Assembly: GCA_051362555.1 (NCBI GenBank)
Contig: CM120643.1
Location: forward strand, 3,658,001-3,722,000
Direction: 5' to 3'
Source of the DNA: Lingula anatina
Taxonomy: Eukaryota; Animalia; Brachiopoda
DNA: 64,000 bases
Part shown: positions 25,303-45,407 of the stretch, in pieces
Position numbering within the stretch: position 1 is the first letter of the stretch
Layout of the letters: every line of letters begins with the position of its first letter
Translations under genes and position numbers: made by a program
The notes under the pieces: generated by a model
Seen by the model: only the letters and a program-made list of their open reading frames with translations
Database searches by the model: none
Told to the model about the DNA's origin: nothing

Positions 25303-25651
25303 ATGTTTTATTCGGCACTGAGATATGTCTACCGAAGTTGTAGTCGACACAGTTTTGTTGGTAGAATAACTCAGTGTTTGGCACAACCCTCACAATGCCA
25401 CCAATCACAGCGATTTACATGTGCCGTCTCTCAACTACGAAGGCGAAGCCCTGACAAGATATGGGGTTGGTCGTTGGGGAGAGTTACCACTGGGACTGAG
25501 CTGTCATACTCTACTACAAAAACAATCAATGAATATGAGGGCATCATCAGAGACACAAAAATGCATTTTGAAAGAAACGCGAAGAGGTACCTCATTCAAG
25601 ATGGTAGGAGCGAAGGGGAGATTATTAGTGATTACGAGAACGGAGCTCATG
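25303..25651 (+). CDS. FASTK/RAP-domain mitochondrial RNA-binding protein, 5' part of first coding exon (interrupted)
   Basis: MFYSALRYVYRSCSRHSFVGRI... is Arg/Ser-rich and acid-poor like a mitochondrial presequence. It joins in frame to 43100 (CAT G|AA GCT GAA AAG). Confidence 0.65.
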
Positions 25652-26198
25652 AGGTAAGAGCACTCGCCCTGTAAGCGAGGGGTCCCGGGTTCGATTCCTG
25701 GTCTGGTCGGTGATTTTTCTGCACTCACCCCAAATCGCTACAATGGTGGCAGCGGTGTTGCGAGATAGGGCTCGCGTCTTTCGGCATTTGGGGGGGAGGA
25801 GTGTAGTGCCAGGGGCAGATAGAACCGGCCGGGTAGCTCAGTAGGTAAGAGCACTCGCCCTGTAAGCGAGGGGTCCCGGGTTCGATTCCTGGTCTGGTCG
25901 GTGATTTTTCTGCACTCACCTCAAATCGCTACAATGGTGGCAGCGGTGTTGCGAGATAGGGCTCGCGTCTTTCGGCATTTGGGGGGGAGGAGTGTAGTGC
26001 CAGGGGCAGGTAGAACCGGCCGGGTTCGATTCCTGGTCTGGTCGGTGATTTTTCTGCACTCACCCCAAATCGCTACAATGGTGGCAGCGGTGTTGCGAGA
26101 TAGGGCTCGCGTCTTTCGGCATTTGGGGGGGAGGAGTGTAGTGCCAGATGCAGGTAGAACCGGCCGGGTAGCTCAGTAGGTAAGAGCACTCGCCCTGT
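25652..26198 (+). mobile_element. Tandem TRIM array with a tRNA-like gene in the LTR (Helenus-type non-autonomous LTR retrotransposon)
   Basis: 191-bp unit = 132-bp LTR TGTAG...CTACA (25802-25933) + 59-bp internal region with PBS TGGTGGCAGCGGTG (tRNA-Leu complement; 25744, 25935, 26079) and PPT GGGGGGGAGGAG. LTR copies at 25652-25742 (5'-truncated), 25802-25933, 25993-26077 (47-bp deletion), 26137-26198 (broken). Confidence 0.85.
25827..25900 (+). tRNA. tRNA-Thr(TGT)-like sequence inside the TRIM LTR
   Basis: Cloverleaf: GGCCGGG/TCTGGTC acceptor (3 G-U), GCTC/GAGC D stem, CTCGC-CCTGTAA-GCGAG anticodon arm, CCGGG-TTCGATT-CCTGG T arm. A/B boxes intact, TTTTT follows. C33 is non-canonical, so probably a Pol III promoter module rather than a functional tRNA. 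Confidence 0.7.
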
Positions 26199-26436
26199 TC
26201 GTGCATTTTCCTACCTTCACCCGGTGTGCTCTCCCTGCGCGGAGAGCGCGCAATTACGGTAAGACTGCGCACACCAGGTGGAGAGCCCAACTTCCCTGCC
26301 TGATCCCGGTGAGTACAACTCAACCACAGCTACCGTGCAGACGTGTACGGTATAGACGACAAAAATAATCAGAATTGAGACACAATACACAGTGATCTAC
26401 AATCTCATTCCGTAAGTAGAACCAGTGAATACTTTA
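26196..26436 (+). repeat. 5' LTR of the gag-only gypsy element (first 5 nt missing)
   Basis: Identical by eye to 42859-43099. Followed by T + PBS TGGCGACAAGG (26438-26448; one mismatch to the tRNA-Ser(GCT) complement TGGCGACGAGG). Confidence 0.85.
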
Positions 26437-27039
26437 TTGGCGACAAGGCATTCGTAACTTGTAATTTTGCTGGCCTAAAGCTTAGTTTTCGCTGTGATCT
26501 AGCTGAAGGTGGATTACGCGGGAAATTCCTTTGTCTAACATCCTTTTGTATAATTGGGTGGAGCGGCGGTCAAAATTGTAGTTTCAATTTTGGATCATAA
26601 AGGTTACCGCTTCAGGAGACACTGGTATTTGTTGCGTATCTACTGTATTTTCAGTGCTTACGTGTGTGAATTGTGATATAAAGGAGATGTTGGTCTCATT
26701 CCCCTGTGTGTTGTTATCAAAGCTGAATTTACCACAAGACTGAGGTGCACACGTAATATTTTAGTTTCTTTGTTTCTTTAGTCTATTTGAAAGAATAAAA
26801 TATTGACTTTAGTGTTGTTGTTGATTATTCTTTTGTATTTTAGATAGGATTCTGAACAGAATTTCTGTCTAAATTCAAATTATTGCGTTGTGTGCCGAAG
26901 TCTTTCTTCCCCGAATTTGAATTAAATGTACGTTTTTGGATTCTATTTATAGTGAATTTCGCTATAAGCTTGGTAGTGTATTGTGCTTTGATAGGTGTAA
27001 TTATTTTGAATCAATTTAATTCTCGCTTACAAATGTACA

Positions 27040-28980
27040 ATGGCGAGTGCATCAAGGTTGCCAAGCAAGCGTGCGACTTACGATGAGCTCGTTACGCTGC
27101 CGGGTATAGGTCCTAAACGTGCAGAAAGGATAATATACGCTAGAGAGCAAGGGATCCCCGTGACCAGATCCAACATTTTGGAAATTTGTGGATCCAATAC
27201 CGAATCAAATAAAATCAAAAATTTCTCTTTTGGGGGTACTCACAGCAGTGAATTAGGATCTGAAGTCAACATGGGTGACCTAGACCCTAGCGTATTATCC
27301 ACTCAAAAAACTCATTACACAACTTCTAAAGTGACTTCCTACATTCAGCATGAAGGAAGAGCGGCTGCTGAGAGATATAGGGTGGAATTTGAAAAGATTC
27401 TCAAACTGGGTGAGAAAATTCAACACCAAGAACAAATTTCTCGCAGTAAAAATGTAAAAAACGCTGCTAATTATTCACCATCAACATATTCTAAATTAAA
27501 ATCTTGTTCAAAGTCACATTTTCACTCAGCTATTGACCCAAAATCTTTCACATCGCAGCCAGCCACTTTAGCCTCTGAATACGACATTTTTACTCTGCCT
27601 ATTGAGAGGCTGCATGCCAATAACAAAGATAAAAAAGTAACATCATCTGTGCATGCAAAGTCTCCAGGCCGCGTCATGAACCCTGATACTGTTACTGCCT
27701 TGCCGAATGGTAAGGACAGTAGTCGGCACTTTGCTCCGTCTGTCCATAAGGGTGATGTGAATTATGATCTGTATCAGTTTCATGTTCCTAAACCCGGACG
27801 GCGGCAACGACATGTTGAGCAAAATTTTGCCGATACAGTTCAACAAAATCATGATTACCGGTCTAGTTCAATAGGAAAACATTATACACGCCCTAGAATC
27901 TCGTCTCCCGTTTTCTGTGACGAACCACTAATTTATGAAAGGGATAACATTGAAAAAGAATACTTTCGGCTACCCAAACCAGAAAAAGTAGGTCCAAAAA
28001 GTAAAAAGGACAGAGTAGACCCCAGAGATTTACCTAAACAATTATCGTTTGACGGAAACAGTGACGACTGGGAGTCTTTCAGAAAAAGATATGAAAGTTA
28101 TCGCCAGATAAAAGAGTGGTCAGAAAACGAGTGTCTGGACTACCTTCTGTGGTGTCTTGAAGGCGAGGCTTTGGCCCTGTATAATAGCCATCTCAGAGCA
28201 AATAAAAATGTGTCGTACACATCTATAATGAAAGAAATGGACTTAGTGTTCGGGATTAAAAAACATCCCGATTCGGCTCGCCTGGCATTTCTTACTGCCG
28301 TTCAATCGCAAAACGAAACGTTAAACCAATGGCTGTGTCGCGTTTTGTTATTGGTCAGAGATGCTTATCCTGATAAATCCGAGTCTTTTAGGACAAAAGA
28401 AACAATATCAAAATTTTGTCAAGGCTGTATTGATCAGGATGCTGGGCGTTATACTAGTTTAAAGCACCCAGCAAGCATCAGCGACGCAATAACACATATG
28501 GTGGACTATCAACATGTTTGTAAACCCACGAATAGTCAAATACAAACAAGAAAAATACGTGAAAAAATTCAAATATGTTCTCTTAATCTTACAGCTAGAG
28601 AAAATCAACAATCTCCGTCTGAAAACGTTGAAAAACTAGCTAAGTCCATCATAGAGAAACGCGTCAGTCAGCAGCCAAAATTGAGCTCAATTCAATTTAA
28701 TTCAATGGCTGACTTGGAAAAAACGGTTGAACATTTGGTCAGGAAGTCCACACCTAAAACATCAAGTGTGTGTTTCTTCTGTAAAAGAAAAGACCATTTT
28801 AAAAGAAATTGCCAGAAATATAAAGAGTTCTTAAAACGAAAAAATACTGATAAAGAACTCGAAAAACAAGAGCGAGCTGATGACGCTGAGTCATTTAAAC
28901 ATAAGGTTCGAGCATCGAGTACATGTTCAAATACACCGTCTCAAATGCATGGCACAGAAAAACCTCACCTACTAAAATAA
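27040..28980 (+). CDS. gag: Gag with N-terminal helix-hairpin-helix, capsid-like region and CCHC zinc knuckle (646 aa)
   Basis: ATYDELVTLPGIGPKRAERII (ComEA-type HhH); FDGNSDDWESF...WSENECLDYLLWCLEGEA capsid motif; CFFCKRKDHFKRNC. Confidence 0.9.
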   Translation: MASASRLPSKRATYDELVTLPGIGPKRAERIIYAREQGIPVTRSNILEICGSNTESNKIKNFSFGGTHSSELGSEVNMGDLDPSVLSTQKTHYTTSKVTSYIQHEGRAAAERYRVEFEKILKLGEKIQHQEQISRSKNVKNAANYSPSTYSKLKSCSKSHFHSAIDPKSFTSQPATLASEYDIFTLPIERLHANNKDKKVTSSVHAKSPGRVMNPDTVTALPNGKDSSRHFAPSVHKGDVNYDLYQFHVPKPGRRQRHVEQNFADTVQQNHDYRSSSIGKHYTRPRISSPVFCDEPLIYERDNIEKEYFRLPKPEKVGPKSKKDRVDPRDLPKQLSFDGNSDDWESFRKRYESYRQIKEWSENECLDYLLWCLEGEALALYNSHLRANKNVSYTSIMKEMDLVFGIKKHPDSARLAFLTAVQSQNETLNQWLCRVLLLVRDAYPDKSESFRTKETISKFCQGCIDQDAGRYTSLKHPASISDAITHMVDYQHVCKPTNSQIQTRKIREKIQICSLNLTARENQQSPSENVEKLAKSIIEKRVSQQPKLSSIQFNSMADLEKTVEHLVRKSTPKTSSVCFFCKRKDHFKRNCQKYKEFLKRKNTDKELEKQERADDAESFKHKVRASSTCSNTPSQMHGTEKPHLLK

Positions 28981-28984
28981 TCAT

Positions 28985-30492
28985 TGCAGCAAAATCAACG
29001 TAGGGGCGTAGAGTGGGAGTCTGATCCTAGTATAGATCAAAATCCTGGGCCTTCAGGCAATTTTTCGTCCATTAAGTGGTCTCGGGTGTAGATCAGTGGA
29101 AAAGTGGACGTGGGCGCGCAGATTTCTGTAATGTCAGGGAGAGTGCATTGCGCGTATTTAATGTTAGCCACCAGTTTTTAGTTATATTGACCTACTATCT
29201 CTTGCTGCAGGGAATCGGAAATTTAGAAATACAGGTTTGCGACAAAATTTTGTGGTGAGATTAACTCTTGTACATGTAGCACCAATGAAAGTTGAAAATT
29301 GAATGCATATGTTCAGTACAACCTAAGTTTTCTGCAAATTGACGGAAAAGATATAGCGGGACGAAGGATTCACAGATCAAAGGAATAATAATAGCACTAG
29401 TACATATAGCGAAATGAAAAGAACAGTGGTATTCCCAAAATCGGAACATGATTCCATGCGAAATCTATAAACAGACTGAAAGGTAGTCTGGAAAGAAAAA
29501 GAGTAAATTGGGGTCACTGATTCAGAGAATGGTGCTGTCCAAAAATTCCGATCAATAAAGAAAACTTCATACGATAAAGTCATGTGGTAGCTACAGTAGC
29601 AAATGACATTTTGGAAACATCTAAATTTGATTGGTATTAACTTAGGGGGTGGATTGTAAAGTTAAAAAAAAAATAATAATAATAAAAAGCTGTGCCTGCA
29701 TTATCAGTTACAAAGCTGATGAGACAACATGTACCGATGTATATCGAATCTTAAAATACGCTTGTGGGATAAAACATACTAGTGGAGGTTTTCATTCACC
29801 CTCCTATAACTGGTAACATCCCTATAACAAGTGTACACCCGAACCAAGACCTAACTTGTGGGATTAAATTCTGCAGGGGTTTCAAGTGTTAATTCCCCTT
29901 ATTTCGAGAATATCCCTAGAACAAGTAACCGATTGAAAAGGACTAAATGTCACAGACTCTGAAGGTGGGTGGAAGCACTAAGGGCCCTTCAAGTGCCCCA
30001 TTCACTGGAAGACGTTTGTAAAACTAAAAATTAACACAAAACTACCGGTAGTATAACATCTTTCAAGACTCCAAACATCGGGAGTCCAAATTTAAATAAA
30101 ACCGCTGGTGAAGTTCACAATGGGCTAGACTCTTCGGGTTGCGTGTCTCTAGTAAAACAGGTTATCCCTGGACATCTGGAAGTGATGTTTACAGTATCTA
30201 AAGGGAATAGTGTAGAATCAAATTTAGAAGGGGTGTTTTCTAAATTGAAATATGTTTTTACTAGAGACAATTTTGATCTTGGTCGGTCTTAAGTCACTCA
30301 ACGTGGAAATGAAGCCGGGAATGCCGAATCCCTTAAATCGCTTATGCGGTGGATGCTTGCGTGTGTCATGCAGAAAGCATAGGGGGCATTGTTAACGGAA
30401 TGTTAACAACCGGATTCATACAAGGCTGACAAGAGTCAGTCTGTGTGGACATTAGCACCGGTGTTGAATAAGTAAACGTGACGTCACGGTGA
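28985..30492 (+). pseudogene. Decayed pol remnant (protease to start of RT)
   Basis: Homologous to the minus-strand pol: aaagtggacgtgggcgcgcagatttctgtaatg ~ KVDTGAQVSVM, KVGGST, and a W..APVL..RD-like segment at ~30447-30490; many stops and frameshifts. Confidence 0.75.
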
Positions 30493-30547
30493 AAAATTTC
30501 CAATAGGGAAAATTAAAAATATTGCTAGCAATTTCCTTAAAGAATTA

Positions 30548-31025
30548 GACTATCACTTTGTGATGTAGTTTATTTTTGTGTTTAAGAAAAATGGCTACAG
30601 TCTATTAAGATCAATTAATGGACTATAACTGTTATGTAGCTTATTTCTGTGTTAATTAACACATGACTACAGTCCATATGACTATCACTCTGTGATGTAG
30701 TTTATTTTGTGTTAATAAATCGCTACAGTCTATTGTGATCAATGGACTATAACTGTTATGTAGCTTATTTTTGTGTAAACACGTGACTACAGTCTAATTT
30801 GATGAAATTTTGAAAAACCGGGATCTTATTTTTGCATTCCATTTTTCTTTTTATTTATTTATGAGAATTTTTGGAACGGACTATCACTATATTTTTGGTG
30901 ATGTGACTGACTGGTGAATGAACAGCCTATCACAGTCTGTTCTACTGTTTATTTATTTTTTGTATTTTTTTTTCGGCGGACTATCACCTCAGTGATGTTG
31001 TTAGCACTAACAGCTAATGACAGTC
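30548..31025 (+). ncRNA. Six copies of a putative three-way-junction RNA motif in the 3' untranslated region
   Basis: GACT-[ATCAC/GTGAT hairpin]-[GTAG..CTAC hairpin]-AGTC at 30548, 30621, 30680, 30745, 30879, 30979, with compensatory changes. Duplicated at 42260-42737. Confidence 0.55.
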
Positions 31026-31320
31026 TGTACGAATATTTCAACTGGAATCCACTTTATTTTATTTATCGAAAGGAATTTTGAGTTTGTACATGGACAAACA
31101 TGTATTTATAAGTAGCTCCTTTCAAATAAAAGTGGGGGGAATGTTGTGTTCGTGCATTTTCCTACCTTCACCCGGTGTGCTCTCCCTGCGCGGAGAGCGC
31201 GCAATTACGGTAAGACTGCGCACACCAGGTGGAGAGCCCAACTTCCCTGCCTGATCCCGGTGAGTACAACTCAACCACAGCTACCGTGCAGACGTGTACG
31301 GTATAGACGACAAAAATAAT

Positions 31321-31375
31321 CAGAAAAATCACCGACCAGACCAGGAATCGAACCCGGGACCCCTCGCTTACAGGG
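31321..31375 (-). other. 3' half of the TRIM tRNA-like sequence (CCCTGTAAGCGAG...GATTTTTCTG)
   Basis: Exact reverse complement of 25858-25912. Confidence 0.9.
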
Positions 31376-31452
31376 AATAAAGTATTCACTGGTTCTACTT
31401 ACGGAATGAGATTGTAGATCACTGTGTATTGTGTCTCAATTCTGATTATTTT
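31376..31452 (-). repeat. Partial 3' LTR (R-U5-like part only) of the TatD element
   Basis: Reverse complement of the last ~77 nt of the LTR, ending ...TACTTTATT. Confidence 0.85.
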
Positions 31453-31477
31453 CAATTTTTGTTTTCCAAATTCCTGG

Positions 31478-33769
31478 TTACTCCCTTTTATACAAGGAAG
31501 TACCATTTTGTGTAGTGATTTTTAAAATATGAGAGACATCCACCCCTCTGTGCCCCGCCAATATCTCTGCCGTTTCATAGAGAATAAAGGGTGTTGAATG
31601 GCCCCCCTTTTTGCGAGCAAAATAGGGGGCATCTGACTCCAAAAGAAGTTTGGAGTCAGGCACCGCCCTAAGTGCTGCTAGTTGATTTTTGTTAAAGGTG
31701 GCAGCAACCCGGGTGAAACCAAAAAAGGTATTTGGTTGCTGCCTTCCCCAAATTTCGAGAAGGGCCTTAGTGCCTGTAAAGCAGTGAAAATGGATCCTCT
31801 GGGACTGCGGAACGCCACACAGTTTCAGATGAAACAAAAGAGATCTTATGGCGAACTCACAGTCTCCAGAGTCTCCCCTCACTCCCCTACAGTGCACAAC
31901 CAGGACATGCCTGGCCTCTAGAAAAGGCAGAAGTCTGTGGAGCAACTCAACCTGATCCTGCCATTTAGACATGGCTTCAGTGTGGTCAAAACCTACCTCG
32001 CCAAAAGCTGTTACTAGCGGCATCTTAACCAACTCTGAGAAAGCCTTAATTGCCTGGTCCAGATTGCCCTGAGAAAGCTTGCCGGCTAGCCTCGGGTGAA
32101 AACCAATAGCTACATACTCGATCCCAGACAGAGTGGAAAGATACCCCTTAGTAGGATATGTCTTGGGATCGCAGTAAATAGCTACAGTTCCCACCAACTC
32201 TACCTCTTTCCCAGAGCAAACAGGAAGCAAACCCTTAAGACCCTCTAACTTGCCAGAGTATGGAAGACCAAAGGCAGCCAGGGTTCTATCTAGATGATAG
32301 TGACTATCGAAAGCTTGCCTCCCTGACTTACTTTGTTCCCCCGCCTCCAGACAAGTTTCTGGCCTGGTGAACCCTTGAATCCACAACGACCTCTGCTGCT
32401 CCGTTATAGAAGCAGACAGCTGTGTCAGGACTCTCCAATCCACCAGGACCCCGACAGAGTTAGCTGGGTATAAGGTGAAACACACTGGGACCGGTTTATT
32501 GAGAAATTTACAGAAATTTTCCATGGCAGTAATTTGGATTGAAGAAAAAGTGCCATGGGCTAAATTTAATTTATCTGGAAGAGCCGAAATGAACTGGTAT
32601 AAAGTGTCCAGTTCTTTTTTAAAACCAAAAATGAAGAAAGTAAGCATCTCCAGTGCTTTAACCATTACACCCAAGATGTTGGGCTCAGGATTGGCGCGCT
32701 CATCAAAGATAGACGGGACATGCAGCCCCAGCGAATGCTGCCTGAGCATCTGCTCATTGAATTTCACCCCACACCCAGGGACCACACATTGCATCCCAGA
32801 GTGATCTTTCCTGGCCCTTTTGGGGTCAGGTCCAACCACTCCGGATGGTGTCTGGCTAGACCTTTTCGGTTCCCTGGTTGTAGGATGAGACAGCTCCGCT
32901 GACTCAACATGCCCATCCACCCCAGACTTTGCAGCAACCAACCCCTTGCCAGGTTTCTTACCACGCCTCCACCAAGGAGCTCTCTTCTTCCCCTTACGCT
33001 TACTGCCCCCCATGGGCTCAGATGGTACAGGCCCAGGAACAGGAACTTGGATCCCTGTTGGAGCAGCAGCTTCAGGGAGGTGTGAACCTGAAGAAGAGGA
33101 GATAGAAAAGTTAAAAGGGATGGCGGTATTTTGCAGCAGTGATGCGCCTGGCTTAGAAGCTTCCGGAGCAGCTGGAGGTTTCACGCTGGTTTCAGCATCC
33201 CTTGGGACTCCAAGAAGTCTGTCCTCCTCAATGGAGTCCAGACTGGAGTTGGGGTCGATGTTACTTGACCCCACACCAAGTTCAGCCTCAACCAATTGCG
33301 ATTCCACCTCCATAGGCTGGACCGAGCCACTCCCATCGACCACCTGGGAAATGAGTGTTATGTTTGGGTCCTTCCCAAGCCTGAAATCACGAGTTTTTTG
33401 TCCATCGTACTCCACGGAGGGAGCAGATTTCAAAACCCGTGCAGGAAGGGTGAAATTTTTGGGAAGGCGCCAAACATTCTTCTCAATCCAGTTTTTAGAC
33501 GCAAGCCCACTAGATTGTAGTTGGTAGGCCACTTGCTGCAACCATGCCAGAGACATGGCATACCTACCGGGAGCACGAAGCTCCTTTTTATAAATGGTAG
33601 CCATCCCAGCCACCAGTGTTTTGAAGTAGCTGCTGTGATCTTCCCCAGGCAGAGCCTGGGCCAAATCCTGGACAAACTGGGTTCCAGGGACATCTATAGG
33701 TGAACAATGCTGTAATCTGAGTGAAGTCTCCTTCACAACAGGTGCTACTTCCGTGATAGTATTGGCCAT
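31478..33769 (-). CDS. ORF3: TatD-family metal-dependent DNase with ~480-aa N-terminal extension (763 aa)
   Basis: TatD motifs FDSHYHLD, GFHP, FGEVGFD, VVHCR, HFHCFTG, LLESDAPYF in 31478-32315. Basic patch KRKGKKRAPWWRRGKK and C-x4-C..H-x4-H finger upstream. Confidence 0.9.
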   Translation of the reverse strand: MANTITEVAPVVKETSLRLQHCSPIDVPGTQFVQDLAQALPGEDHSSYFKTLVAGMATIYKKELRAPGRYAMSLAWLQQVAYQLQSSGLASKNWIEKNVWRLPKNFTLPARVLKSAPSVEYDGQKTRDFRLGKDPNITLISQVVDGSGSVQPMEVESQLVEAELGVGSSNIDPNSSLDSIEEDRLLGVPRDAETSVKPPAAPEASKPGASLLQNTAIPFNFSISSSSGSHLPEAAAPTGIQVPVPGPVPSEPMGGSKRKGKKRAPWWRRGKKPGKGLVAAKSGVDGHVESAELSHPTTREPKRSSQTPSGVVGPDPKRARKDHSGMQCVVPGCGVKFNEQMLRQHSLGLHVPSIFDERANPEPNILGVMVKALEMLTFFIFGFKKELDTLYQFISALPDKLNLAHGTFSSIQITAMENFCKFLNKPVPVCFTLYPANSVGVLVDWRVLTQLSASITEQQRSLWIQGFTRPETCLEAGEQSKSGRQAFDSHYHLDRTLAAFGLPYSGKLEGLKGLLPVCSGKEVELVGTVAIYCDPKTYPTKGYLSTLSGIEYVAIGFHPRLAGKLSQGNLDQAIKAFSELVKMPLVTAFGEVGFDHTEAMSKWQDQVELLHRLLPFLEARHVLVVHCRGVRGDSGDCEFAIRSLLFHLKLCGVPQSQRIHFHCFTGTKALLEIWGRQQPNTFFGFTRVAATFNKNQLAALRAVPDSKLLLESDAPYFARKKGGHSTPFILYETAEILAGHRGVDVSHILKITTQNGTSLYKRE

Positions 33770-33771
33770 AT

Positions 33772-33800
33772 CTGTAATAACAATGAAAAATAATTATTAG
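33772..33800 (-). promoter_or_regulatory. Candidate splice acceptor for a subgenomic ORF3 mRNA
   Basis: Minus strand CTAAT branch-like site, T-rich tract, then TTACAG 2 nt before the ORF3 ATG. Confidence 0.55.
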
Positions 33801-36800
33801 ATTTGACATTTTACACACTTGTATTTATCAATGTTTATCGCTTCGGTAGAAGTGACATTGACGCAGGATCCATGATACCATTCATGACAGTAATCACATT
33901 GAATCATGAATCTGCCCTGATAAGGCTCCCTGCAAATACAGTATGGTGTCAAATCTTCTTCCTCACTGTTACTCGAGTGCTGAAATTGTTCATCAGAAGC
34001 TAAATATTCTGTAATCCATGAGGGTACATTTCTGTCCCTACAGGGCATGAGCCTGTCATGGTTAATTACAAAGATTGCATTTTTTAGCTTCACTCGATAC
34101 AGATAGCCAGATAATTTCTTTACAATGATGGCGGGTCCTTTCCATGGTGAACACAATTTTCGTGATTTGCCTTTAGTTGTTGCTGTATCCAAAACATAAA
34201 CCAAATCCTTTTCAGCATAAGGTCTAAGCAGGATTTTAAGGTCATAGTCACGTTTCATGCGTTTTGAAGTTGTTTTTAAATTGGCTCTTGCTGTAATATG
34301 AGCTAATTTCATTTTTTGTACTAACTTTGAAATGTATTCACCATAGTCAGTTTCTTTTGATTTCAGATTTGGGAACATAATTTGGGCTGGAGTACTGACC
34401 TCCCTCCCAAGCATGAGCATATTAGGGGTATACCCCGTACTTCTGTTTACAGAAGCACGCAACGCGCCTGCAATTTGCTGGACATATTTATCCCATTCAC
34501 CCTGATTTTTACCCAAAAAACACCGTACGGCATCCATCAGGGTACGATTGAACCTTTCAACCTGTCCATTTGCAGACGGTCGGTACGGAGTAGTGCGTGA
34601 TTTGTGTATATGTAAGGCCCTACACAAATCCCCGAACAATTGACTTTCAAAATTCCGTCCCTGATCAGAAAAAAGTTGATAGGGATAACCGAACCTAGAA
34701 AAGAAACAGTCAATTGCTGCTTTCGCGGTAACTTCAGCCGTTTGAGAAGGCAACGGTACGCACTCTACCCACTTTGTGAATTGATCAACCATGACCAAAC
34801 AATGCTCATTACCTTTTGCTGTTTTAGGTAGCGGTCCCAAGAAATCAATATGAACCCGTTCCATCGGAGCACCTGCAACATATTCAGTCAGGGGGACTCT
34901 TCCGTAACACCCTTTTTTCTTATTTTTATTACAGATGTCACAACTCAGGACATAATTGGCTATTTCTTTGCTCATATGGGGCCAGTAAAATTTTTCTTTG
35001 ATTTTTGTTTTTGTTCTAGCCACTCCTTGGTGACCAGCTGAAGGGATATCATGATGTAACTTGAAAACAGAATTTTTTAATGATTCTGGGATGACTAATT
35101 TTAGATCTTTGCTTTCCTCTTCAGTTTTGAAAATGACTCCATGATGTAATTTGAATAATTCTTTATTCAGCCAGTAAGTTTTGGAGATTGGGCTTGATCG
35201 GAAGAGTGCACCCTGATCTGGGGTATTCCCATTGCATAACCACTCTCGTAAAATGTTAAGCTCAGGGTCTTTTGCTTGTTCAGTTTTTAATTTTTCCATA
35301 GAAAAACCCCAACACTGAGGAATATCCGGGTTTGGATTTGACCTCGCCTCCGGACCACACGCATTTATTTCTACATGAGATTCCTCGGGTTGCAGAGCTA
35401 CATCGGTAGAGAGGGCTACAATTTTATCTAGGAGACAATAAAAAAGATGTTCCGGACCCGTTTCTCGTCCCAGATTGACTGTATTTAATGAGGATGTTAG
35501 ATCGCGTTGACTTTTTGTAGATTTACCAGTAAATTTGGATGACAATTTTTTCTTTTCTGTTAAATTGACCGCTTCGTCGACGTCACCGAAAAAACTCCCC
35601 CAGTTTTCATGGGCTCTGACGCAATAACTACATCCTCCGCAAGGTAAATTTTCCGGCTTTATTCCCGCTATATACTCGTTACACGGTGCCAAATTGTCGG
35701 GTATTCTAGACAACGAATCAGCATTGCTATGCTTAGCTCCGGCACGATGTTGTACGATCATATTGAATTGCGAAAGCTCTTCTATCCACCTCGCGAGTTG
35801 ACCTTGAGGCTCCTTAAACCTCAGTAACCACGTCAGACTTGAATGATCGGTGCGAACGGTAAATATTCGGCCCAAAAGATAATACCTGAATTGTCTGGTA
35901 AATCTCACGATAGCCAAAAGCTCTTTTCGCGTGGTGCAATAATTCTTTTGTTCGGGAGTTAACGCGTAGCTGCCGTACGCAATTACTTTCTCCTCGCCGT
36001 TTTGCACTTGTATTAACTCTGCACCAATCGAGTGATTTGAAGCGTCGGTATCTAAAATAAACGGATCGTTTGCGTTTGGTAACGATAAGACTGGTGGTGT
36101 AGTCAATGCCGTTTTGAGCGCTTCGAAAGATTGAGCTTGATCTGGTCCCCATTCAAAGGCATGTTTACCTTTAATTTTGCTCAGAGGATGGGATATTTCC
36201 GCAAAATTTTTTATAAAAGTCCGGTGATAATTTGCCAATCCTAAGAACCTTTCAACGTCCTTAGAACAAGTGGGTTGTGGCCAAGAAGTTACAACTTCAA
36301 TATCCTTAGGGCTCATTTTCATGGTGTTATTAGAAACAATCCGCCCCAGGAATTCAACTTCTTTTTGAAACAAAACGCACTTTTTTGGCTTTAATTTGAT
36401 ACCGAACTGGCGAAATCTTCCCAAAGCCTCTTTCAAATTTTCTAAATGATTTTCAAAGGACTTCCCCATTACCAAAATGTCGTCCAAAAATGCCAAAACT
36501 GTTTTCCATGTCAACCCCTTCATAAGTAAATTGACTACTCGGGAGAAAGTCGCAGGAGCATTGGTCAAGCCGAAACCCATACGGACATGTTCGAATAATC
36601 CGTATTTCGTGATAAAAGCTGTTTTATGCCTATCTTCGGGTTTAATTTTGACTTGCCAATACGCAGAATTAGCATCTAACTTCGAAAACCAGATGTTTCC
36701 CGACAGCGTATCTTTGCAATCTTCCATTAATGGTAACGGGTACGTGTCTTTGACCGTGACATTGTTCAAGGCGCGATAATCGATGCACCATCGGACGGAA

Positions 36801-38545
36801 CCGTCACGTTTTCTTATTAAAACTGGTGCTGATGCCCACTCTGACGTAGACTCTTGGATGACCCCAGCTTTTAACATTTTTGTTAATAATGCCTCCTCTT
36901 CTTGAATAAAACACGCGGGAGTTCGCCGCATACGCGTTTTAAGAGGTTTGGCATTCCCGGTATCGATACCATGCTCGATGGCACTAAACCGACCAAGGTC
37001 ATACTCGTCTCTAGCAAAAACATCCTGAAATTCAGATAGAACATTCTTTAATTTTTTACTCTGAATTTTGTTTAAATTCCTCTTTGATGTTTCATAAACC
37101 ACTTTTACATGGTCAGGAATTTCTGATGATTTGCTAGCGACGCGTCCAGAAGAATCTAGTCCGGCGTGAACGTCACCAGCGATTTGTTGAAAATTCCGCA
37201 CCTGAGGTGACCCCTTTACAGGTGACTTGAAAATTTCGGTGTTAATTTTTTCTTCAACGAACCCCTTTCCGGCAGATGGGGCACTTACAGGGCCCTGAGT
37301 ACTTCCACCCACCTTCAGAAGTTGTTTACTTTTTGTGTCATTTTTAAATCGGGCACTTGTTTTAGGGATATTCTCAAAATTAGGGGAATTAACACCAGAA
37401 ACCCCAGTAGAATTTAATCCCACAAGCTTTGTCATATTTGGGTGCACACCTGTTCTAGGGATTTTACTAGTTCTAGGAGTGTAAATTGAATGCTCCACTG
37501 GTAAATTGAATCCCACAAGTGTGTTTGTAGAATCCCTACCGGTTCTAGGGACGGCTGATTTTACACGAGTAATTTCAGGTAATCCCACCAGTAGATCGGT
37601 AGTCATTGTCTCATCAGTGGTACTGACAACACGAGCGCTGGATTGGTCAATTTTAGTAGACCCCCCTCCCACTCGATGTAAACCGAAGTGCGAAACAGGG
37701 TTTTCTAAAATTTCCGAAACTTCGCAAGCCGTAGCGACCACATGACCCCTTTTTAATTTTTTAAATTGATCTGATGGATTTAAGAGGCACACGACTGGTT
37801 TTGATTTTTCGGACAAGACAGTTCTCGGTATTAGTAGTCCCTCTTCTTCTTTACCCTCGACGACGTATTTTTCTAACTTTTCGTCGATCTCGCACGTTAT
37901 TCTTAGTGCTGAATTTGGGGGTACTACTACATTTCGTGAAACGCTAACCCGAGCTATTTTAATGTCTTGTGCACGCGACTCCGTTTGCTGCATAGGTATG
38001 TCGCGCCCTTCTATTTGGATGTAACCCAAATTACAATGCACGCTTGCATTAAACTGGGCAATTAGATCGTGGCCTAACAAAAAATCGTCATGTATCGGCG
38101 CTACCAGAACAGATTCCTTGATTTCGAAACGATCTAGTTCGATGGAAATTGGCTCACAAACACGAGTTTCGATTTGTATATCCCCTGCCGCAAGAGTAAG
38201 ACTGTAATATTTCTTGAGCGATGGTTTATTTTTTATTTGCTCGAATATTTTTTCAGCCATGACAGAAACTTGCGCACCGGTGTCAACTTTGGCCATTACA
38301 TGTACACCCGCCACTACCAAAGGAACGAATGAAGATCGAAAAACCCCAAGTTCATCAATTACAGGATTTTGACCACATTCTAACTCGGAATGATGAGGAC
38401 GATGCAATGTTTCCATTACGGGGATAGTATTGTCAACGGTTCGTGTTTGAGACAATGAAGTCGCGATGGTTTCACCCGTTTTGTGACCGGTTTCAGTCGG
38501 GTTTCCAAGGTTACGGTCATTTCCCTTGGACCCTTCTAGTTTAAA
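33797..38545 (-). CDS. pol: Pol: aspartic protease, RT, RNase H, integrase, C-terminal PHD finger
   Basis: KVDTGA; APVLIRKRDGSVRWCIDYRALN, FLDD; LDTDAS, KELLAI, RTDH, NADSLSR; HHCC plus D-D-E (HIDF, FSDQG, QVERFN), WKGP; YCICREPY...CDYCHEWYHGSC...CVKC. Frame stays open back to the slippery site. Confidence 0.95.
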   Translation of the reverse strand, partial: FKLEGSKGNDRNLGNPTETGHKTGETIATSLSQTRTVDNTIPVMETLHRPHHSELECGQNPVIDELGVFRSSFVPLVVAGVHVMAKVDTGAQVSVMAEKIFEQIKNKPSLKKYYSLTLAAGDIQIETRVCEPISIELDRFEIKESVLVAPIHDDFLLGHDLIAQFNASVHCNLGYIQIEGRDIPMQQTESRAQDIKIARVSVSRNVVVPPNSALRITCEIDEKLEKYVVEGKEEEGLLIPRTVLSEKSKPVVCLLNPSDQFKKLKRGHVVATACEVSEILENPVSHFGLHRVGGGSTKIDQSSARVVSTTDETMTTDLLVGLPEITRVKSAVPRTGRDSTNTLVGFNLPVEHSIYTPRTSKIPRTGVHPNMTKLVGLNSTGVSGVNSPNFENIPKTSARFKNDTKSKQLLKVGGSTQGPVSAPSAGKGFVEEKINTEIFKSPVKGSPQVRNFQQIAGDVHAGLDSSGRVASKSSEIPDHVKVVYETSKRNLNKIQSKKLKNVLSEFQDVFARDEYDLGRFSAIEHGIDTGNAKPLKTRMRRTPACFIQEEEALLTKMLKAGVIQESTSEWASAPVLIRKRDGSVRWCIDYRALNNVTVKDTYPLPLMEDCKDTLSGNIWFSKLDANSAYWQVKIKPEDRHKTAFITKYGLFEHVRMGFGLTNAPATFSRVVNLLMKGLTWKTVLAFLDDILVMGKSFENHLENLKEALGRFRQFGIKLKPKKCVLFQKEVEFLGRIVSNNTMKMSPKDIEVVTSWPQPTCSKDVERFLGLANYHRTFIKNFAEISHPLSKIKGKHAFEWGPDQAQSFEALKTALTTPPVLSLPNANDPFILDTDASNHSIGAELIQVQNGEEKVIAYGSYALTPEQKNYCTTRKELLAIVRFTRQFRYYLLGRIFTVRTDHSSLTWLLRFKEPQGQLARWIEELSQFNMIVQHRAGAKHSNADSLSRIPDNLAPCNEYIAGIKPENLPCGGCSYCVRAHENWGSFFGDVDEAVNLTEKKKLSSKFTGKSTKSQRDLTSSLNTVNLGRETGPEHLFYCLLDKIVALSTDVALQPEESHVEINACGPEARSNPNPDIPQCWGFSMEKLKTEQAKDPELNILREWLCNGNTPDQGALFRSSPISKTYWLNKELFKLHHGVIFKTEEESKDLKLVIPESLKNSVFKLHHDIPSAGHQGVARTKTKIKEKFYWPHMSKEIANYVLSCDICNKNKKKGCYGRVPLTEYVAGAPMERVHIDFLGPLPKTAKGNEHCLVMVDQFTKWVECVPLPSQTAEVTAKAAIDCFFSRFGYPYQLFSDQGRNFESQLFGDLCRALHIHKSRTTPYRPSANGQVERFNRTLMDAVRCFLGKNQGEWDKYVQQIAGALRASVNRSTGYTPNMLMLGREVSTPAQIMFPNLKSKETDYGEYISKLVQKMKLAHITARANLKTTSKRMKRDYDLKILLRPYAEKDLVYVLDTATTKGKSRKLCSPWKGPAIIVKKLSGYLYRVKLKNAIFVINHDRLMPCRDRNVPSWITEYLASDEQFQHSSNSEEEDLTPYCICREPYQGRFMIQCDYCHEWYHGSCVNVTSTEAINIDKYKCVKCQI
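38505..38545 (-). promoter_or_regulatory. -1 programmed ribosomal frameshift signal
   Basis: T TTA AAC heptamer (38545-38539) directly before the gag TAG; the -1 frame is pol. Downstream GGTC/GACC and CAAGG/CCTTG can form an H-type pseudoknot. Confidence 0.75.
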
Positions 38546-40616
38546 TGAGTTGGATTCGTTATATCAGCCCGTGCTTGTTGTTTTTCAGCATTTTTTCTTT
38601 GTAAGAATTTTTTATATTTTAGGCAATTTCGTTTAAAATGGCCCTTTCCTTTACAGAAAAAACACACAGGTGTTGTTTTAGGTGTGAATTTCCGGACCAA
38701 GCGTTCAACCATAGATTCCAACTCTGCCATTGAATTAAACTGAATTGTATTCAATTTAGGTGACTGGCTAACGCGTTTTTCCACGATGGATTCAACAAGT
38801 TATATTTTAGGCAATTTCGTTTAAAATGGCCCTTTCCTTTACAGAAAAAACACACAGGTGTTGTTTTAGGTGTGAATTTCCGGACCAAGCGTTCAACCAT
38901 AGATTCCAACTCTGCCATTGAATTAAACTGAATTGTATTCAATTTAGGTGACTGGCTAACGCGTTTTTCCACGATGGATTCAACAAGTTGTTCTACATTT
39001 TCAGTTGGAAATTGCTGATTTTCATCAGCTGTTAGATTTAGAGAACTAATTTGTAATTCATCACGATTTTTTCGTGTTGGTTTTTGAATATGTGATGATT
39101 TGTAGACTTGCTGATAATCCACCATGTAGGTCATTGCCTCGCTGATGCTTGCTGGATGTTTTAAACGAGTGTAACGCCCGGCATCCTGATCAATGCAGCC
39201 CTGACAAAATTTAGATATTGTTTCTTTTGTTCTAAAGGATTCTGATTCATCAGGATAAGCATCTTTGGCCAATAACAAAACACGGCACAGCCATTTATTC
39301 AAGGTTTCGTTGGGAGATTGAACTGCTGTGTGAAATGCCAAACGAGCTGAATCGGGATGTTTTTTAATTCCGAATACTGAATCCATTTCACTCATTAAGG
39401 CTGAATACGTCATGTTTTTATTTGCTCTGAGATTGGTGTTATACAAAGCCAAAGCCTCGCCTTCCAGACTCCATAAAAGGTAATCTAGACACTCATTTTC
39501 CGACCACTCTTTCACTTGGCGATAACTGTCAAATCTGTTTTTAAAAGACTCCCAGTTTTCACAATTTCCGTCAAAAGACAATTTTTTGGGTAAATCACTG
39601 GGGTCCCCTCTGTCCTTTTTAGGTTTAGGACGTACTGGTTTTGGTACTGTAAAATATTCATTTTCACTTTCATCGCTTTCGGGAAGAAGTGGTTCGTCGC
39701 GGAAAACGGGAGACGAAATTCTATGGCGCGTATGATGTTTTTCTATTGAACTCGGCCGGTAATCATGTTTACGTTCGACTGTATCAGCAACATTATGCTC
39801 AACGTTAAGTTGCCGCCGTCCGGGCGTAGGAACATGAATCTGTGGCAGATCATAATTCGAAACAACCCGATGGACAGACGGAGCTGGTCGCCGACTACTT
39901 TCCCTACCAGTCGGTAAAGAAGTAACAGTCTCGGAATTTATGACACGGCCTGGAGGCTTTATATGCGCGGAAGAAGTTATATGATCTTTGTTATCGACAC
40001 GCAGCCTCTCAATAGGCAGAGCAAAAAGATCGTATTCAGGGTCTAAAGTGGCTGGCTGCGAAGTGAAAGTTCTGGGGTCCAAAGCTGAGTGAGAACGTAA
40101 TTTTGTTTTTGGTTTGATAAATTGCTGCTCAGTTGTTGATTTTGAACGAGCTTTTAATTTTAAATATGTTGGTGGAGAATAAGTTGCAGCTTTTTGAATG
40201 TTTTTACTGCGTGAAATTTTTTCTTGTTGATTAATTTCCTCACCCACTTTGAGAATTCTTTCAAATTCTGCCCTATAGCTTTCAGCAGCCGCTCTTCCTT
40301 CATTATGAATGTAGGAAGTCACTTTAGAAGTTTTGGGTTTTTGACTTTTTTCAGTGGATAATGTGCTAGTATCGAGGTCACCCACGTCGACTTCAGATCC
40401 GAATTCACTTCTGTGAGTACTGCCAAAAGAGAGATTTTCAATTACATTTGATCCAAGATTGGATCCACAAATCTCCAAAATGTTGGATCTGGTCACGGGG
40501 ATCCCATGTTCTCTAGCATATATTATCCTTTCTGCACGTTTAGGACCTATACCTGGCAGCGTAACGAGCTCATCGTAAGTAGCATGATTGACTGGCAACC
40601 TTGATGCACTCGCCAT
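38536..40616 (-). CDS. gag: Gag (HhH - capsid - CCHC), disrupted near the C-terminus by a 188-bp tandem duplication
   Basis: VNHATYDELVTLPGIGPKRAERII, CFFCKGKGHFKRNC present twice. Ancestral end ...THLN* at 38536, current stop at 38751. Confidence 0.88.
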
Positions 40617-40690
40617 TGTACATTTGAAAGCGAAAACTAAATTGATTCAAAATAATTTCACTTATCAAAGCACAATACACTACCAAGCTT

Positions 40691-43099
40691 ACCTACTGCA
40701 GCAAAATCAACGTAGGGGCGTAGAGTGGGAGTCTGATCCTAGTATAGATCAAAATCCTGGGCCTTCAGGCAATTTTTCGTCCATTAAGTGGTCTCGGGTG
40801 TAGATCAGTGGAAAAGTGGACGTGGGCGCGCAGATTTCTGTAATGTCAGGGAGAGTGCATTGCGCGTATTTAATGTTAGCCACCAGTTTTTAGTTATATT
40901 GACCTACTATCTCTTGCTGCAGGGAATCGGAAATTTAGAAATACAGGTTTGCGACAAAATTTTGTGGTGAGATTAACTCTTGTACATGTAGCACCAATGA
41001 AAGTTGAAAATTGAATGCATATGTTCAGTACAACCTAAGTTTTCTGCAAATTGACGGAAAAGATATAGCGGGACGAAGGATTCACAGATCAAAGGAATAA
41101 TAATAGCACTAGTACATATAGCGAAATGAAAAGAACAGTGGTATTCCCAAAATCGGAACATGATTCCATGCGAAATCTATAAACAGACTGAAAGGTAGTC
41201 TGGAAAGAAAAAGAGTAAATTGGGGTCACTGATTCAGAGAATGGTGCTGTCCAAAAATTCCGATCAATAAAGAAAACTTCATACGATAAAGTCATGTGGT
41301 AGCTACAGTAGCAAATGACATTTTGGAAACATCTAAATTTGATTGGTATTAACTTAGGGGGTGGATTGTAAAGTTAAAAAAAAAATAATAATAATAAAAA
41401 GCTGTGCCTGCATTATCAGTTACAAAGCTGATGAGACAACATGTACCGATGTATATCGAATCTTAAAATACGCTTGTGGGATAAAACATACTAGTGGAGG
41501 TTTTCATTCACCCTCCTATAACTGGTAACATCCCTATAACAAGTGTACACCCGAACCAAGACCTAACTTGTGGGATTAAATTCTGCAGGGGTTTCAAGTG
41601 TTAATTCCCCTTATTTCGAGAATATCCCTAGAACAAGTAACCGATTGAAAAGGACTAAATGTCACAGACTCTGAAGGTGGGTGGAAGCACTAAGGGCCCT
41701 TCAAGTGCCCCATTCACTGGAAGACGTTTGTAAAACTAAAAATTAACACAAAACTACCGGTAGTATAACATCTTTCAAGACTCCAAACATCGGGAGTCCA
41801 AATTTAAATAAAACCGCTGGTGAAGTTCACAATGGGCTAGACTCTTCGGGTTGCGTGTCTCTAGTAAAACAGGTTATCCCTGGACATCTGGAAGTGATGT
41901 TTACAGTATCTAAAGGGAATAGTGTAGAATCAAATTTAGAAGGGGTGTTTTCTAAATTGAAATATGTTTTTACTAGAGACAATTTTGATCTTGGTCGGTC
42001 TTAAGTCACTCAACGTGGAAATGAAGCCGGGAATGCCGAATCCCTTAAATCGCTTATGCGGTGGATGCTTGCGTGTGTCATGCAGAAAGCATAGGGGGCA
42101 TTGTTAACGGAATGTTAACAACCGGATTCATACAAGGCTGACAAGAGTCAGTCTGTGTGGACATTAGCACCGGTGTTGAATAAGTAAACGTGACGTCACG
42201 GTGAAAAATTTCCAATAGGGAAAATTAAAAATATTGCTAGCAATTTCCTTAAAGAATTAGACTATCACTTTGTGATGTAGTTTATTTTTGTGTTTAAGAA
42301 AAATGGCTACAGTCTATTAAGATCAATTAATGGACTATAACTGTTATGTAGCTTATTTCTGTGTTAATTAACACATGACTACAGTCCATATGACTATCAC
42401 TCTGTGATGTAGTTTATTTTGTGTTAATAAATCGCTACAGTCTATTGTGATCAATGGACTATAACTGTTATGTAGCTTATTTTTGTGTAAACACGTGACT
42501 ACAGTCTAATTTGATGAAATTTTGAAAAACCGGGATCTTATTTTTGCATTCCATTTTTCTTTTTATTTATTTATGAGAATTTTTGGAACGGACTATCACT
42601 ATATTTTTGGTGATGTGACTGACTGGTGAATGAACAGCCTATCACAGTCTGTTCTACTGTTTATTTATTTTTTGTATTTTTTTTTCGGCGGACTATCACC
42701 TCAGTGATGTTGTTAGCACTAACAGCTAATGACAGTCTGTACGAATATTTCAACTGGAATCCACTTTATTTTATTTATCGAAAGGAATTTTGAGTTTGTA
42801 CATGGACAAACATGTATTTATAAGTAGCTCCTTTCAAATAAAAGTGGGGGGAATGTTGTGTTCGTGCATTTTCCTACCTTCACCCGGTGTGCTCTCCCTG
42901 CGCGGAGAGCGCGCAATTACGGTAAGACTGCGCACACCAGGTGGAGAGCCCAACTTCCCTGCCTGATCCCGGTGAGTACAACTCAACCACAGCTACCGTG
43001 CAGACGTGTACGGTATAGACGACAAAAATAATCAGAATTGAGACACAATACACAGTGATCTACAATCTCATTCCGTAAGTAGAACCAGTGAATACTTTA
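40691..43099 (+). repeat. Direct duplicate of 28967-31325 (pol remnant, 3WJ array, PPT) ending in a complete 246-bp LTR (42854-43099)
   Basis: Offset 11712 bp; identical by eye except a 12-bp deletion at the left junction. LTR runs TGTTG...CTTTA. Confidence 0.9.
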
Positions 43100-44686
43100 A
43101 AGCTGAAAAGGACCTTGACGGAGTTCTACGGTATATATATGCAGTCGTTAGTCTTAAATGTTTGAGGGATTCGCCAAGATATCAAAACACTCATCTTCTA
43201 CAAGATGACAGGATATCATCAGCCCTGCTAACCATCATGAATAAAGGTTTGATGGAGGGAAGTGTTCCACGTCTGTTAATCGGATTGTTGGTAGTTGGGG
43301 TTTTAATTCAGCCATCTCCAGAAATCCTTCAGTTTTATAAGGAACTGGAGAGACACATGTCACAGGTATGGTCCGAATGGCATGTTGAGTCTAGGATAGA
43401 GGCCAGATACGGATGGTTACATCTGTCTTTACTACACAAGCAGAAATACTTCGAAGAGCAGATAAGGATTTTCTTGAAGCACTTGATGAGTGAGGCAGAG
43501 CTAGAGAGGAAAGAACTTGGAGGCAAAGAAACTCACTGGCTTGTTAGTGTTCTACACTCTGCAACATACTATTCTTGTGAACTGGGAGGAAAATGGGTGG
43601 ATGAAAATGATGTAAGACATTTTTTACAGGAGCTGAAATTCAACAGTGAATTCTCTGAGCCGAGAGAAGTGTACAGGTATGTCCAACTCTGTCATAATGT
43701 TGAATATTTGGTGCCCTCTGACATTTTATGGAAGGGGTTGGAGATTCTGCTTCGTGATGGAACTGAAGAATACAAGAGGCGTGCATTTCTGTGCATTAAG
43801 TGGATGTTGGGCTTAGCCCAAAAGCAGAAGTTGAATAAAGGTTTCATGGATGTACAATATGTTACAGAACTTGCTGAGATATTTAAGAAGCATGCATCTT
43901 TGTTGCCATTGAGAGAGCAAATTGGTATCACATGGCAATTTGGTGTAAATTATTATTCTGATCATGAAATGCTGTTGAAAGTTGCTGAGAACTTTGTGGC
44001 TAATGCACAAGATATCGATGGGGAGGATGGTTATAGATTAGTTCATGCTTACCTACGAATGGATTGCAATACAAATATTGCTTTTTTAAAAAAAGTGGTT
44101 GATTTAGTGCAAAACCAAAGGAGAAATGTCCCTCCTTTCAAATTGCTTTCCATTACTTGTGATTTGATGCGCTGTCATGGCTATTATGAAGTCTTCAGTG
44201 GAATACTTGATAGTTGTTTCCAGTCTGGTCTGATGAAAGAGGAATCATTAAATGTTATGAAGCCAAGAGGGTGTATAAAGATTGTGGAGTTGTGTGGAAG
44301 GTTAGAAATAGAGCAAATTGACAAGTATGTTAAGAAGATTCCACCAAGCCTTTACAAAGCAGATGGCATTCAATACTGTGCGGAAAAATTGAAAAATATA
44401 TGTCAGCATTCCTCAAAGAAGGCTGTTTTAGCAGCTGTACAGATGATTCTTGGTGGTCCCCACATGGCAAGAGTCACGCCAGTACTTTCCATATATCGTC
44501 CTATTGTGGAGTTCTGTTTGAATGACTTGAATGAGCCTGTAGACATGAAGCTGGTGCCCAGGGTCTTTGATGAAAATGGATTCCTCAAAATGGAAAACAT
44601 GTCTGCCTTGCCAGAAAGATGGAGAAGAATAGCAGTGTGGATTCTTCATGATGAAGATTTCTTTATCAACAAGCCAATGTTAACTG
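43100..44686 (+). CDS. FASTK/RAP-domain protein, 3' part of first coding exon
   Basis: Open from 43100 (AEKDLDGVLRY...). Leu-rich helical region, then RRIAVWILHDEDFFINKPMLTG (RAP start). Donor G|GTGAGT at 44687. Confidence 0.75.
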
Positions 44687-45407
44687 GTGAGTTAAAAATG
44701 TGGTTGTTGTATGTAGAGATAGCTTTAGTAAGCCCACCCTGCTGCCATGAGCAGCTTTGGGTTTTAACTAACACAAGCTTGACTTCTGTGTATTGAGCCT
44801 ATTTCTTCTAAATACTTGCTGGTTACCCACTGAGGGCCAGCTTATATAGCCATAACAACAATGGGGTACTGGGAATAACAATAGGGTACAAAGGACAACA
44901 ATGATGTATCAATAGAGAGTAATGTAGACAACTGACGCTTGTATAGTACACTTCTCATATTAATTCAACATATGTAAGTATCAAACTGTGCACCTGCCTT
45001 GTTGATTTCAATAAGCATTTTATCAGTAATACCTAAAGATGTTATTTGACTGTGGCTATGTACCCTTTTTTCTTTTTTTTTTTTTTCTTTTTTTTTTGGG
45101 GGGGGGGGATTTGAGTACTTTCTCTCTGTATGTACATGTCAAATAATAAGTACTAAACTCTTCCTCACTGAATCACAGCATGTAACTGTGGTATATATTT
45201 CCCAGGTAACAGTGTATTATCTCACACCTTAACAGAGGCCATCTAAATTTGAATGGGTTATATGTCTATGTGATAAAGTTTTGACATGAATAGGTTTTCT
45301 TTGTGTAAATATTAATATTTCAGTGCATTCAGGCACACATTTCCTCTTAGTAAGACATTGAAATATGTTTTACGTTAAACATTGATTTGGTTTTCTTTAT
45401 TCACCAG

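Follow-up and report, generated by a model that had tools for sequence, protein, structure and literature searches.

A TatD-family nuclease gene carried downstream of pol by a lineage of Ty3/gypsy retrotransposons in Lingula anatina and other marine invertebrates

Organization of the locus

The window analysed here is a 64,000-nucleotide stretch of the Lingula anatina genome (assembly GCA_051362555.1, contig CM120643.1), and it contains two gypsy retrotransposons, one lying within the other (Table 1). The inner one, referred to here as the TatD element, has the Ty3/gypsy order by Pfam, with gag (capsid, CCHC) followed by protease, reverse transcriptase, RNase H and integrase, and it carries a third open reading frame (ORF3) whose ATG is 27 nt downstream of the pol stop. 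Its 5' LTR is missing and the LTR remnant after ORF3 is 77 nt only. The outer one, sister element A, has an LTR, PBS and PPT with no clean TSD, and the two gags are ~80% identical. The TatD element sits inverted inside sister A, with perfectly matching copies of a 2341-bp stretch on either side, and the duplicate at 40697..43099 abuts its truncated 5' end. A DNA contig from another run departs from the window sequence ~30 nt past the ORF3 stop, and the 3' junction in the window is therefore probably a deletion, the normal 3' end of the element probably being longer than the one seen here. A preliminary description of this DNA had placed GTGAGT and GTAAGT splice donors in the LTR; both are present, at LTR positions 114 and 217, but the full LTRs in the window are those of sister A. 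We infer that the two elements use the same LTR family.

Several other features of the locus are of note. The region 26196-43099 is rearranged, with the 2341-bp duplication, the inverted inner element, a 132-bp inverted LTR/TRIM piece, the 188-bp duplication and microhomologies at the junctions, and this reflects either template switching or an assembly artefact. Two ARAGORN tRNA-Thr(TGT) calls fall inside the 191-bp tandem unit (25638-26195), and the gypsy LTR of sister A starts at the anticodon loop of the tRNA-Thr-like stretch. By its layout, rather than by comparison with a published consensus, this unit looks like a Helenus TRIM, which likewise combines a short LTR with tRNA-like sequence, PBS and PPT; at least three Helenus families are described in Lingula (PMC10886601). 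Targeting of tRNA sites by the element family was considered and set aside, as relaxed ARAGORN searches of related loci gave noise and the idea is unsupported beyond the window locus. An HhH motif opens gag in both window elements (40480-40616 and 27040-27170), and is present in two of six related gags scanned (L026 and L029). Finally, a 564-codon open frame with no Pfam match (43100-44796, plus strand) begins directly at the end of the outer LTR, and is probably a long host exon that the LTR has interrupted or come to adjoin.

Table 1. Features of the TatD element, sister element A and adjoining sequences (window coordinates)
Feature	Coordinates	Strand	Basis
191-bp tandem unit: tRNA-Thr-like stretch, PBS-like and PPT-like motifs	25638..26195	+	
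Sister element A: decayed, deleted pol; no ORF3; partial 3' LTR	26196..31325	+	
Sister element A 5' LTR, followed by PBS	26196-26436	+	
Sister element A intact HhH-gag	27040-28980	+	
tRNA-Thr-like repeat, 3' half, inverted relative to adjoining LTR piece; 5-nt microhomology	31321..31375	-	
Last 77 nt of LTR family, joined 27 nt past ORF3 stop; contains GTAAGT donor 31402	31376..31452	-	
ORF3, 763 aa, intronless	31478..33769	-	ORF list, Pfam, AlphaFold; ATG 33769, stop 31478
ORF3 TatD barrel, aa 484-761, group II HxH	31487..32320	-	Pfam, structure comparison, alignment
ORF3 family-specific domain, aa 325-470: C328/C333/H345/H350 finger and helical bundle	32360..32797	-	
ORF3 basic NLS-like patch, aa 256-275, 11 K/R in 20, inside disordered linker	32945..33004	-	
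ORF3 N-terminal helical domain, aa 10-98	33476..33742	-	confidently modelled (AlphaFold)
Predicted branch point, pyrimidine tract and CAG acceptor	33772..33800	-	sequence, conservation; exon start would be 33771
pol, 1588 open codons: protease, RT, RNase H, integrase, C-terminal PHD finger	33797..38563	-	ORF list, Pfam
188-bp perfect tandem duplication disrupting gag 3' end	38612-38987	-	
gag: N-terminal HhH, PNMA-like capsid, CCHC	38751..40616	-	ORF list, Pfam
Perfect 2341-bp duplicate of sister A 28985-31325, complete LTR at end	40697..43099	+	

ORF3 encodes a multidomain TatD protein

TatD_DNase is the sole Pfam family matched by ORF3 (E 2.3e-27, above the cut-off), and the AlphaFold model has four parts: an N-domain (residues 10-98), a disordered linker (110-323), a finger and helical domain (325-470) and a barrel (484-760). 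The barrel aligns with TatD structures at Z 24-26 and an rmsd of ~3 Å over ~245 residues, and non-TatD amidohydrolases score at Z ≤17, save for one archaeal TatD-like chain. The motifs DSHYH (488), FHP (557), GEVGFD (590), VHCR (625), FHCF (661) and ESDAP (711) are all in place, with the metal and catalytic residues H490, H492, E591, H626, H662, E711 and D713; the N-terminal HxH together with the Glu, His, His and Glu-x-Asp that follow assign the protein to group II. The 763-aa TatD frame with a full motif set directly after pol is thus as first described, and so is its N-terminal extension with a basic NLS-like patch and a C2H2-like finger. The finger is invariant or nearly so in homologues (C328 in 126/126 aligned rows, C333 in 130/131, H345 in 133/134 and H350 in 139/139), and the patch, judged by its composition, would be expected to direct nuclear import.

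Two domains of ORF3 have no Pfam match. Foldseek returned nothing at E≤0.001 for the N-domain and middle region (residues 1-479), with the middle domain scarcely covered, and the best VIA match (Z 8.7) was to generic helical repeats only, with no specific fold match. No hydrophobic N-terminus, signal peptide, membrane anchor or fusion-protein fold characteristic of env was found in ORF3, and its sole hydrophobic stretch (residues 365-383, KD 1.9) is a helix within the globular middle domain. A DEDDy/RNase D domain is also absent, Pfam and fold searches leading to TatD alone.

Origin of the TatD domain

An ORF3 profile matches 119 TATDN2-type proteins at 116-271 bits (median 141), compared with at most 72-86 bits for bacterial group II proteins, 37 for TATDN3 and 28 for TATDN1. 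The ORF3 domains form a single clade (SH-aLRT 96 and 99 in trees of 115 and 42 rows) whose sister clade consists of animal TATDN2 together with unnamed metagenome TatDs (SH-aLRT 94 and 98), these being quick trees with at most five bacterial outgroup rows and no TATDN1/3 rows. ORF3 thus lies outside the cellular TATDN2 clade and does not group as an orthologue, and the middle domain is present in none of the 119 TATDN2-type proteins. We infer one ancient capture from a TATDN2-like eukaryotic gene.

A Lingula anatina protein 96% identical to ORF3 over 181 aa is annotated in RefSeq as 'putative deoxyribonuclease TATDN2', and the name would fit an ORF3 that is a retrocopy of host TATDN2 or a neutral passenger beside pol. 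However, the true Lingula TATDN2 (P0238) is placed in a different clade, and a topology uniting ORF3 and spiralian TATDN2 is rejected (p-AU 0.023, quick tree). This explanation, to which we give almost no weight, is refuted by the linkage to pol, the co-phylogeny and the dN/dS ratios described below.

Linkage to pol and spread of the family

We fetched 98 related loci, of which 96 match ORF3, 44 with the family middle domain and 52 without it. A same-strand pol is present in 27 of the 44 loci with the middle domain, and in 20 of the 21 that have at least 600 nt upstream. Among the loci lacking this domain, pol is found in one of the ten with at least 600 nt upstream and in two of the 52 overall, and both of these carry the family N-domain. 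The linkage set includes duplicate or near-duplicate loci (L030/L092, L019/L086 and L009/L085), and many of its members derive from few sample series. The related pols are mostly ~45-70% identical to that in the window, and the linkage of TatD to pol in other copies, which had been put forward as a test of the finding, therefore holds in many diverged elements. In the 19 elements where both regions gave one long match, the integrase and TatD trees have 9 of 16 splits in common with no conflict at support ≥95, and distances are correlated (Mantel r 0.77, with none of 5000 permutations as high).

At E≤1e-30 the ORF3 profile retrieved 810 cluster representatives, the best 150 of which were examined, and the middle domain is present in 156 of 348 proteins collected. 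Twenty of the family proteins were looked up, and those with a named source belong to Lingula, Pecten, Ostrea, Mya, Diadema and Strongylocentrotus; other searches yielded further named homologues in Mercenaria, Mactra and Dreissena. The sea-urchin proteins of ORF3 type fall inside the same clade as the window ORF3, and from the tree the named database proteins are presumably linked to pol as well. IMG/VR holds no relatives of ORF3 or of the integrase-PHD region.

There are three other observations on the distribution of the family. One contig (L020:1-2700) has integrase-PHD and ORF3-TatD in one 900-codon frame; this fusion may be a lost stop codon, because an acceptor-like site still precedes a Met there. 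Family members, most of them with gypsy pol, were also found in bacterial genome bins (L081-L092; eleven contigs in two Sedimenticola bins and one in a Nitrospinota bin), and the family proteins P0009 and P0324 carry the name Ca. Thiodiazotropha; all of these are probably contamination of the bins by DNA of animal hosts. In Mya arenaria the P0092 cluster has 13 members at ≥90% identity with distinct gene ids on several chromosome-size contigs, six of the members being 824 aa long, and it is a recently amplified family annotated as host genes.

Conservation and selection

Conservation was assessed in 162 sequences, redundant copies among them, in which the middle domain is present and the barrel nearly complete. 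All seven metal and catalytic residues are kept in 144 of them, with E711 present in 162, D713 in 155 and E591 in 152. An ORF3 kept as a non-catalytic binding scaffold might be proposed from the 18 of 162 homologues in which at least one active-site residue is missing, but the active-site residues are 91-100% conserved among sequences that are only 30-50% identical, and we consider a scaffold very improbable. From its sequence, ORF3 is very probably an active enzyme. Elsewhere in the protein, the linker is fast-changing, and a CCHC appears as an extra module in 2 of 37 long homologues.

The dN/dS ratios for four ORF3 pairs at dS 0.18-0.23 are 0.08, 0.21, 0.20 and 0.13, and those for six closer pairs (dS <0.1), with few changes, are 0.18-0.51; saturated pairs were left out. 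Neutral evolution of the TatD frame, named in the preliminary description as an outcome that would count against it, is thus contradicted by purifying selection (dN/dS 0.08-0.21). Of many read variants in the window ORF3, 53 are listed, with four synonymous and four non-synonymous ones in the TatD part, a sample too small and selected to bear on this. ORF3 is almost certainly a real and selected cargo of this lineage.

Transcription and splicing of ORF3

The env ORF3 of errantiviruses and gypsy elements is made from spliced subgenomic RNA. The TatD ORF3 resembles errantivirus env in sitting after pol with a conserved acceptor just before its ATG, and differs in encoding an enzyme that bears a basic NLS-like patch and has neither signal peptide nor fusion fold. 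Upstream of the ORF3 ATG in the window, a CTAAT overlapping the pol stop is followed by a pyrimidine tract and a CAG that ends 2 nt before the ATG, so the acceptor first reported at this position is present in the sequence. Under a strict rule, 13 of 27 pol-linked loci have a pyrimidine-rich YAG ≤3 nt from an ATG and within 300 nt past the pol stop, and under a relaxed rule 22 of 27 do (two of the relaxed hits are not at the ORF3 start), against backgrounds of 39/3823 and 177/3823 ATGs respectively. Loci L026, L029, L090 and L091 have no acceptor, and that of L028 is 8 nt from the ATG. In the window LTR and in L026, the PBS is preceded at 26 nt by a GTAAGT donor, and L004, L014 and L090 have such a donor ≤250 nt from a PBS-like site; the PBS-like site of L006 has none nearby, and five other loci are without a clear donor/PBS pair.

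Seven raw RNA runs labelled as the same species were mapped to the window. In run X17, whose orientation was set by 205/205 LTR reads, reads span the entire ORF3 at a mean depth of 7.7 sense and 1.7 antisense, with a depth of 5.4 at the end of pol; the lack of a clear step between pol and ORF3 counts against a spliced mRNA. In run X15 the sense depth is ~1.4 on ORF3 and ~0.4 on pol (68 reads), and cover is patchy in the other runs. Several runs show splicing from the LTR donor at 31402, but onto exons unrelated to the element, and no LTR-to-33771 joint is among the joints listed in the seven runs, for which depth is ~5-7 at best. Reads spliced from the donor (31401-31407) to such unrelated exons number 175 in X17 and 45 in X19, and the donor usage suggests that solo LTRs act as first exons of host genes. 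The original proposal that ORF3 is translated from spliced RNA has indirect support from the recurrent acceptor, the use of the donor and the sense transcripts, whereas an LTR-ORF3 junction is absent from those listed; expression from a spliced mRNA is likely.

Possible roles of the ORF3 nuclease

Enzymatic ORF3s other than env are already known in retrotransposons, and TatD as such a cargo appears to be the new part. The closest known case is that of the bdelloid elements Juno and Vesta, LTR elements in which the ORF3 position is occupied by a DEDDy exonuclease or a GDSL esterase, with functions described as unproven; the exonuclease is non-env and apparently catalytically intact (PMC5408684). 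The folds differ, DEDDy in the bdelloid elements and a TIM-barrel TatD in the Lingula-type ORF3. Moreover, the DEDDy frame is reported as family-specific, gained at least twice and without significant departure from neutrality within a genome (PMC5408684), whereas the TatD ORF3 probably reflects one old capture, is co-inherited with pol under purifying selection, and has named members in three phyla. No paper on TatD cargo in retrotransposons was found in the literature listings searched; repeat libraries (Repbase, Dfam, GyDB), the majority of subscription journals and the supplements of bioRxiv preprints lay outside that search and may contain such elements. The Troyka paper mentions neither PHD, DNase nor nuclease. 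'Selgy' was rejected as a name for the lineage, as only plant elements were found under it.

The preliminary description had proposed a nuclear DNase. The assignment as a TatD nuclease stands, but the restriction to DNase is too narrow, as the nearest relatives of the domain are in the TATDN2 clade. The roles put forward with it, namely trimming of cDNA, processing of targets and destruction of immunostimulatory DNA, are conjectural. In humans, TATDN2 acts in the nucleus on RNA hairpins, both as a 3' exonuclease and as an endonuclease; it is mainly an RNase, and it removes the RNA strand of R-loops with a requirement for E593 and E705 (PMC10711561). DNase activity is therefore only one option for the ORF3 domain, which is sister to TATDN2. 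Human TATDN2 E593, E705 and D707 occupy the same motifs as ORF3 E591, E711 and D713, and the two proteins share a group II HxH barrel, equivalent Glu/Glu/Asp motifs and a long N-terminal extension (PMC10711561; PMC12709183); TATDN2 N-termini often have an NLS (PMC10085689). Unlike cellular TATDN2, ORF3 is intronless and mobile and has the C2H2/helical domain. TATDN1, TATDN3 and the E. coli paralogues TatD, YcfH and YjjV have the same fold (Z 24-26) and metal site as ORF3, but their profile scores place them further away, and they are cellular enzymes with a single domain. They act as exonucleases on ssDNA and as endonucleases at AP sites (PMC10085689), and the TatD fold thus does not fix the substrate.

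We propose that ORF3 acts in the nucleus, where the nuclease, translated from a spliced message, would remove RNA:DNA hybrids that the element gives rise to, a reading that we place only slightly short of an even chance. The TatD gene is retained after pol, passes down together with the integrase and is transcribed. An env-style subgenomic mRNA without the PBS would result from joining the LTR donor, 26 nt upstream of the PBS, to the acceptor that precedes the ATG by 2 nt. The basic patch would bring ORF3 into the nucleus, the C2H2/helical domain would bind nucleic acid or a partner, and the barrel, by its kinship with TATDN2, would strip the RNA strand from hybrids, either R-loops formed where copies are transcribed or hybrid remaining in cDNA. 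Removal of the hybrid RNA would raise transposition. That an RNA:DNA hybrid is the substrate, which we argue by analogy, is plausible but somewhat less likely than not, and the RNase H domain already present in the element's pol counts against it.

Alternatively, ORF3 could be a DNA-repair-type enzyme, either an ssDNA 3'-5' exonuclease or an AP endonuclease, that trims cDNA ends or cleans integration gaps beside the PHD-targeted integrase. Such activities are those of other TatD enzymes (PMC10085689), the L020 fusion puts ORF3 in frame with integrase-PHD, and several gags of the lineage have the HhH DNA-binding motif. Nonetheless, TATDN2, the nearest characterised relative, prefers RNA (PMC10711561) and the fusion is seen in only one contig of 27, and we regard a repair role as unlikely, although it is the most serious competitor. 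A little less likely again is a counter-defence nuclease acting on the element's dsRNA, small-RNA triggers or stray cDNA so as to pre-empt silencing or innate sensors. The cleavage of RNA hairpins by human TATDN2 (PMC10711561) would suit such a role, as would separate expression of ORF3 as an accessory gene, the rapid change of its linker and its added modules (CCHC in 2 of 37), and a silencing-related role has been considered for the bdelloid DEDDy ORF3 (PMC5408684); purifying selection on the TatD domain argues against it.

Accessory genes that retroelements keep for long periods point to host barriers to be overcome, and with a nuclease intact across three phyla, R-loops, integration-site repair and nucleic-acid sensing become testable as limits to transposition in marine invertebrates. 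Existing annotations need correction: in Lingula, Mya, Mercenaria, Ostrea, Pecten, Dreissena and sea urchins these frames appear as host genes called 'TATDN2' or 'YcfH-like' or as uncharacterised ones, and in genome bins where animal DNA is probably present they are given as bacterial TatD. The family is also a source of many natural TATDN2-type enzymes and of two domains without a Pfam match. We tentatively suggest, while still rather doubting it, that these elements are an undescribed PHD-gypsy clade that uses a TATDN2-type nuclease as an R-loop resolvase or anti-silencing nuclease on its own copies. If so, a TATDN2-type R-loop nuclease would have been taken from an early eukaryotic host, and the clade would have well over a hundred diverged members across brachiopods, molluscs and echinoderms.
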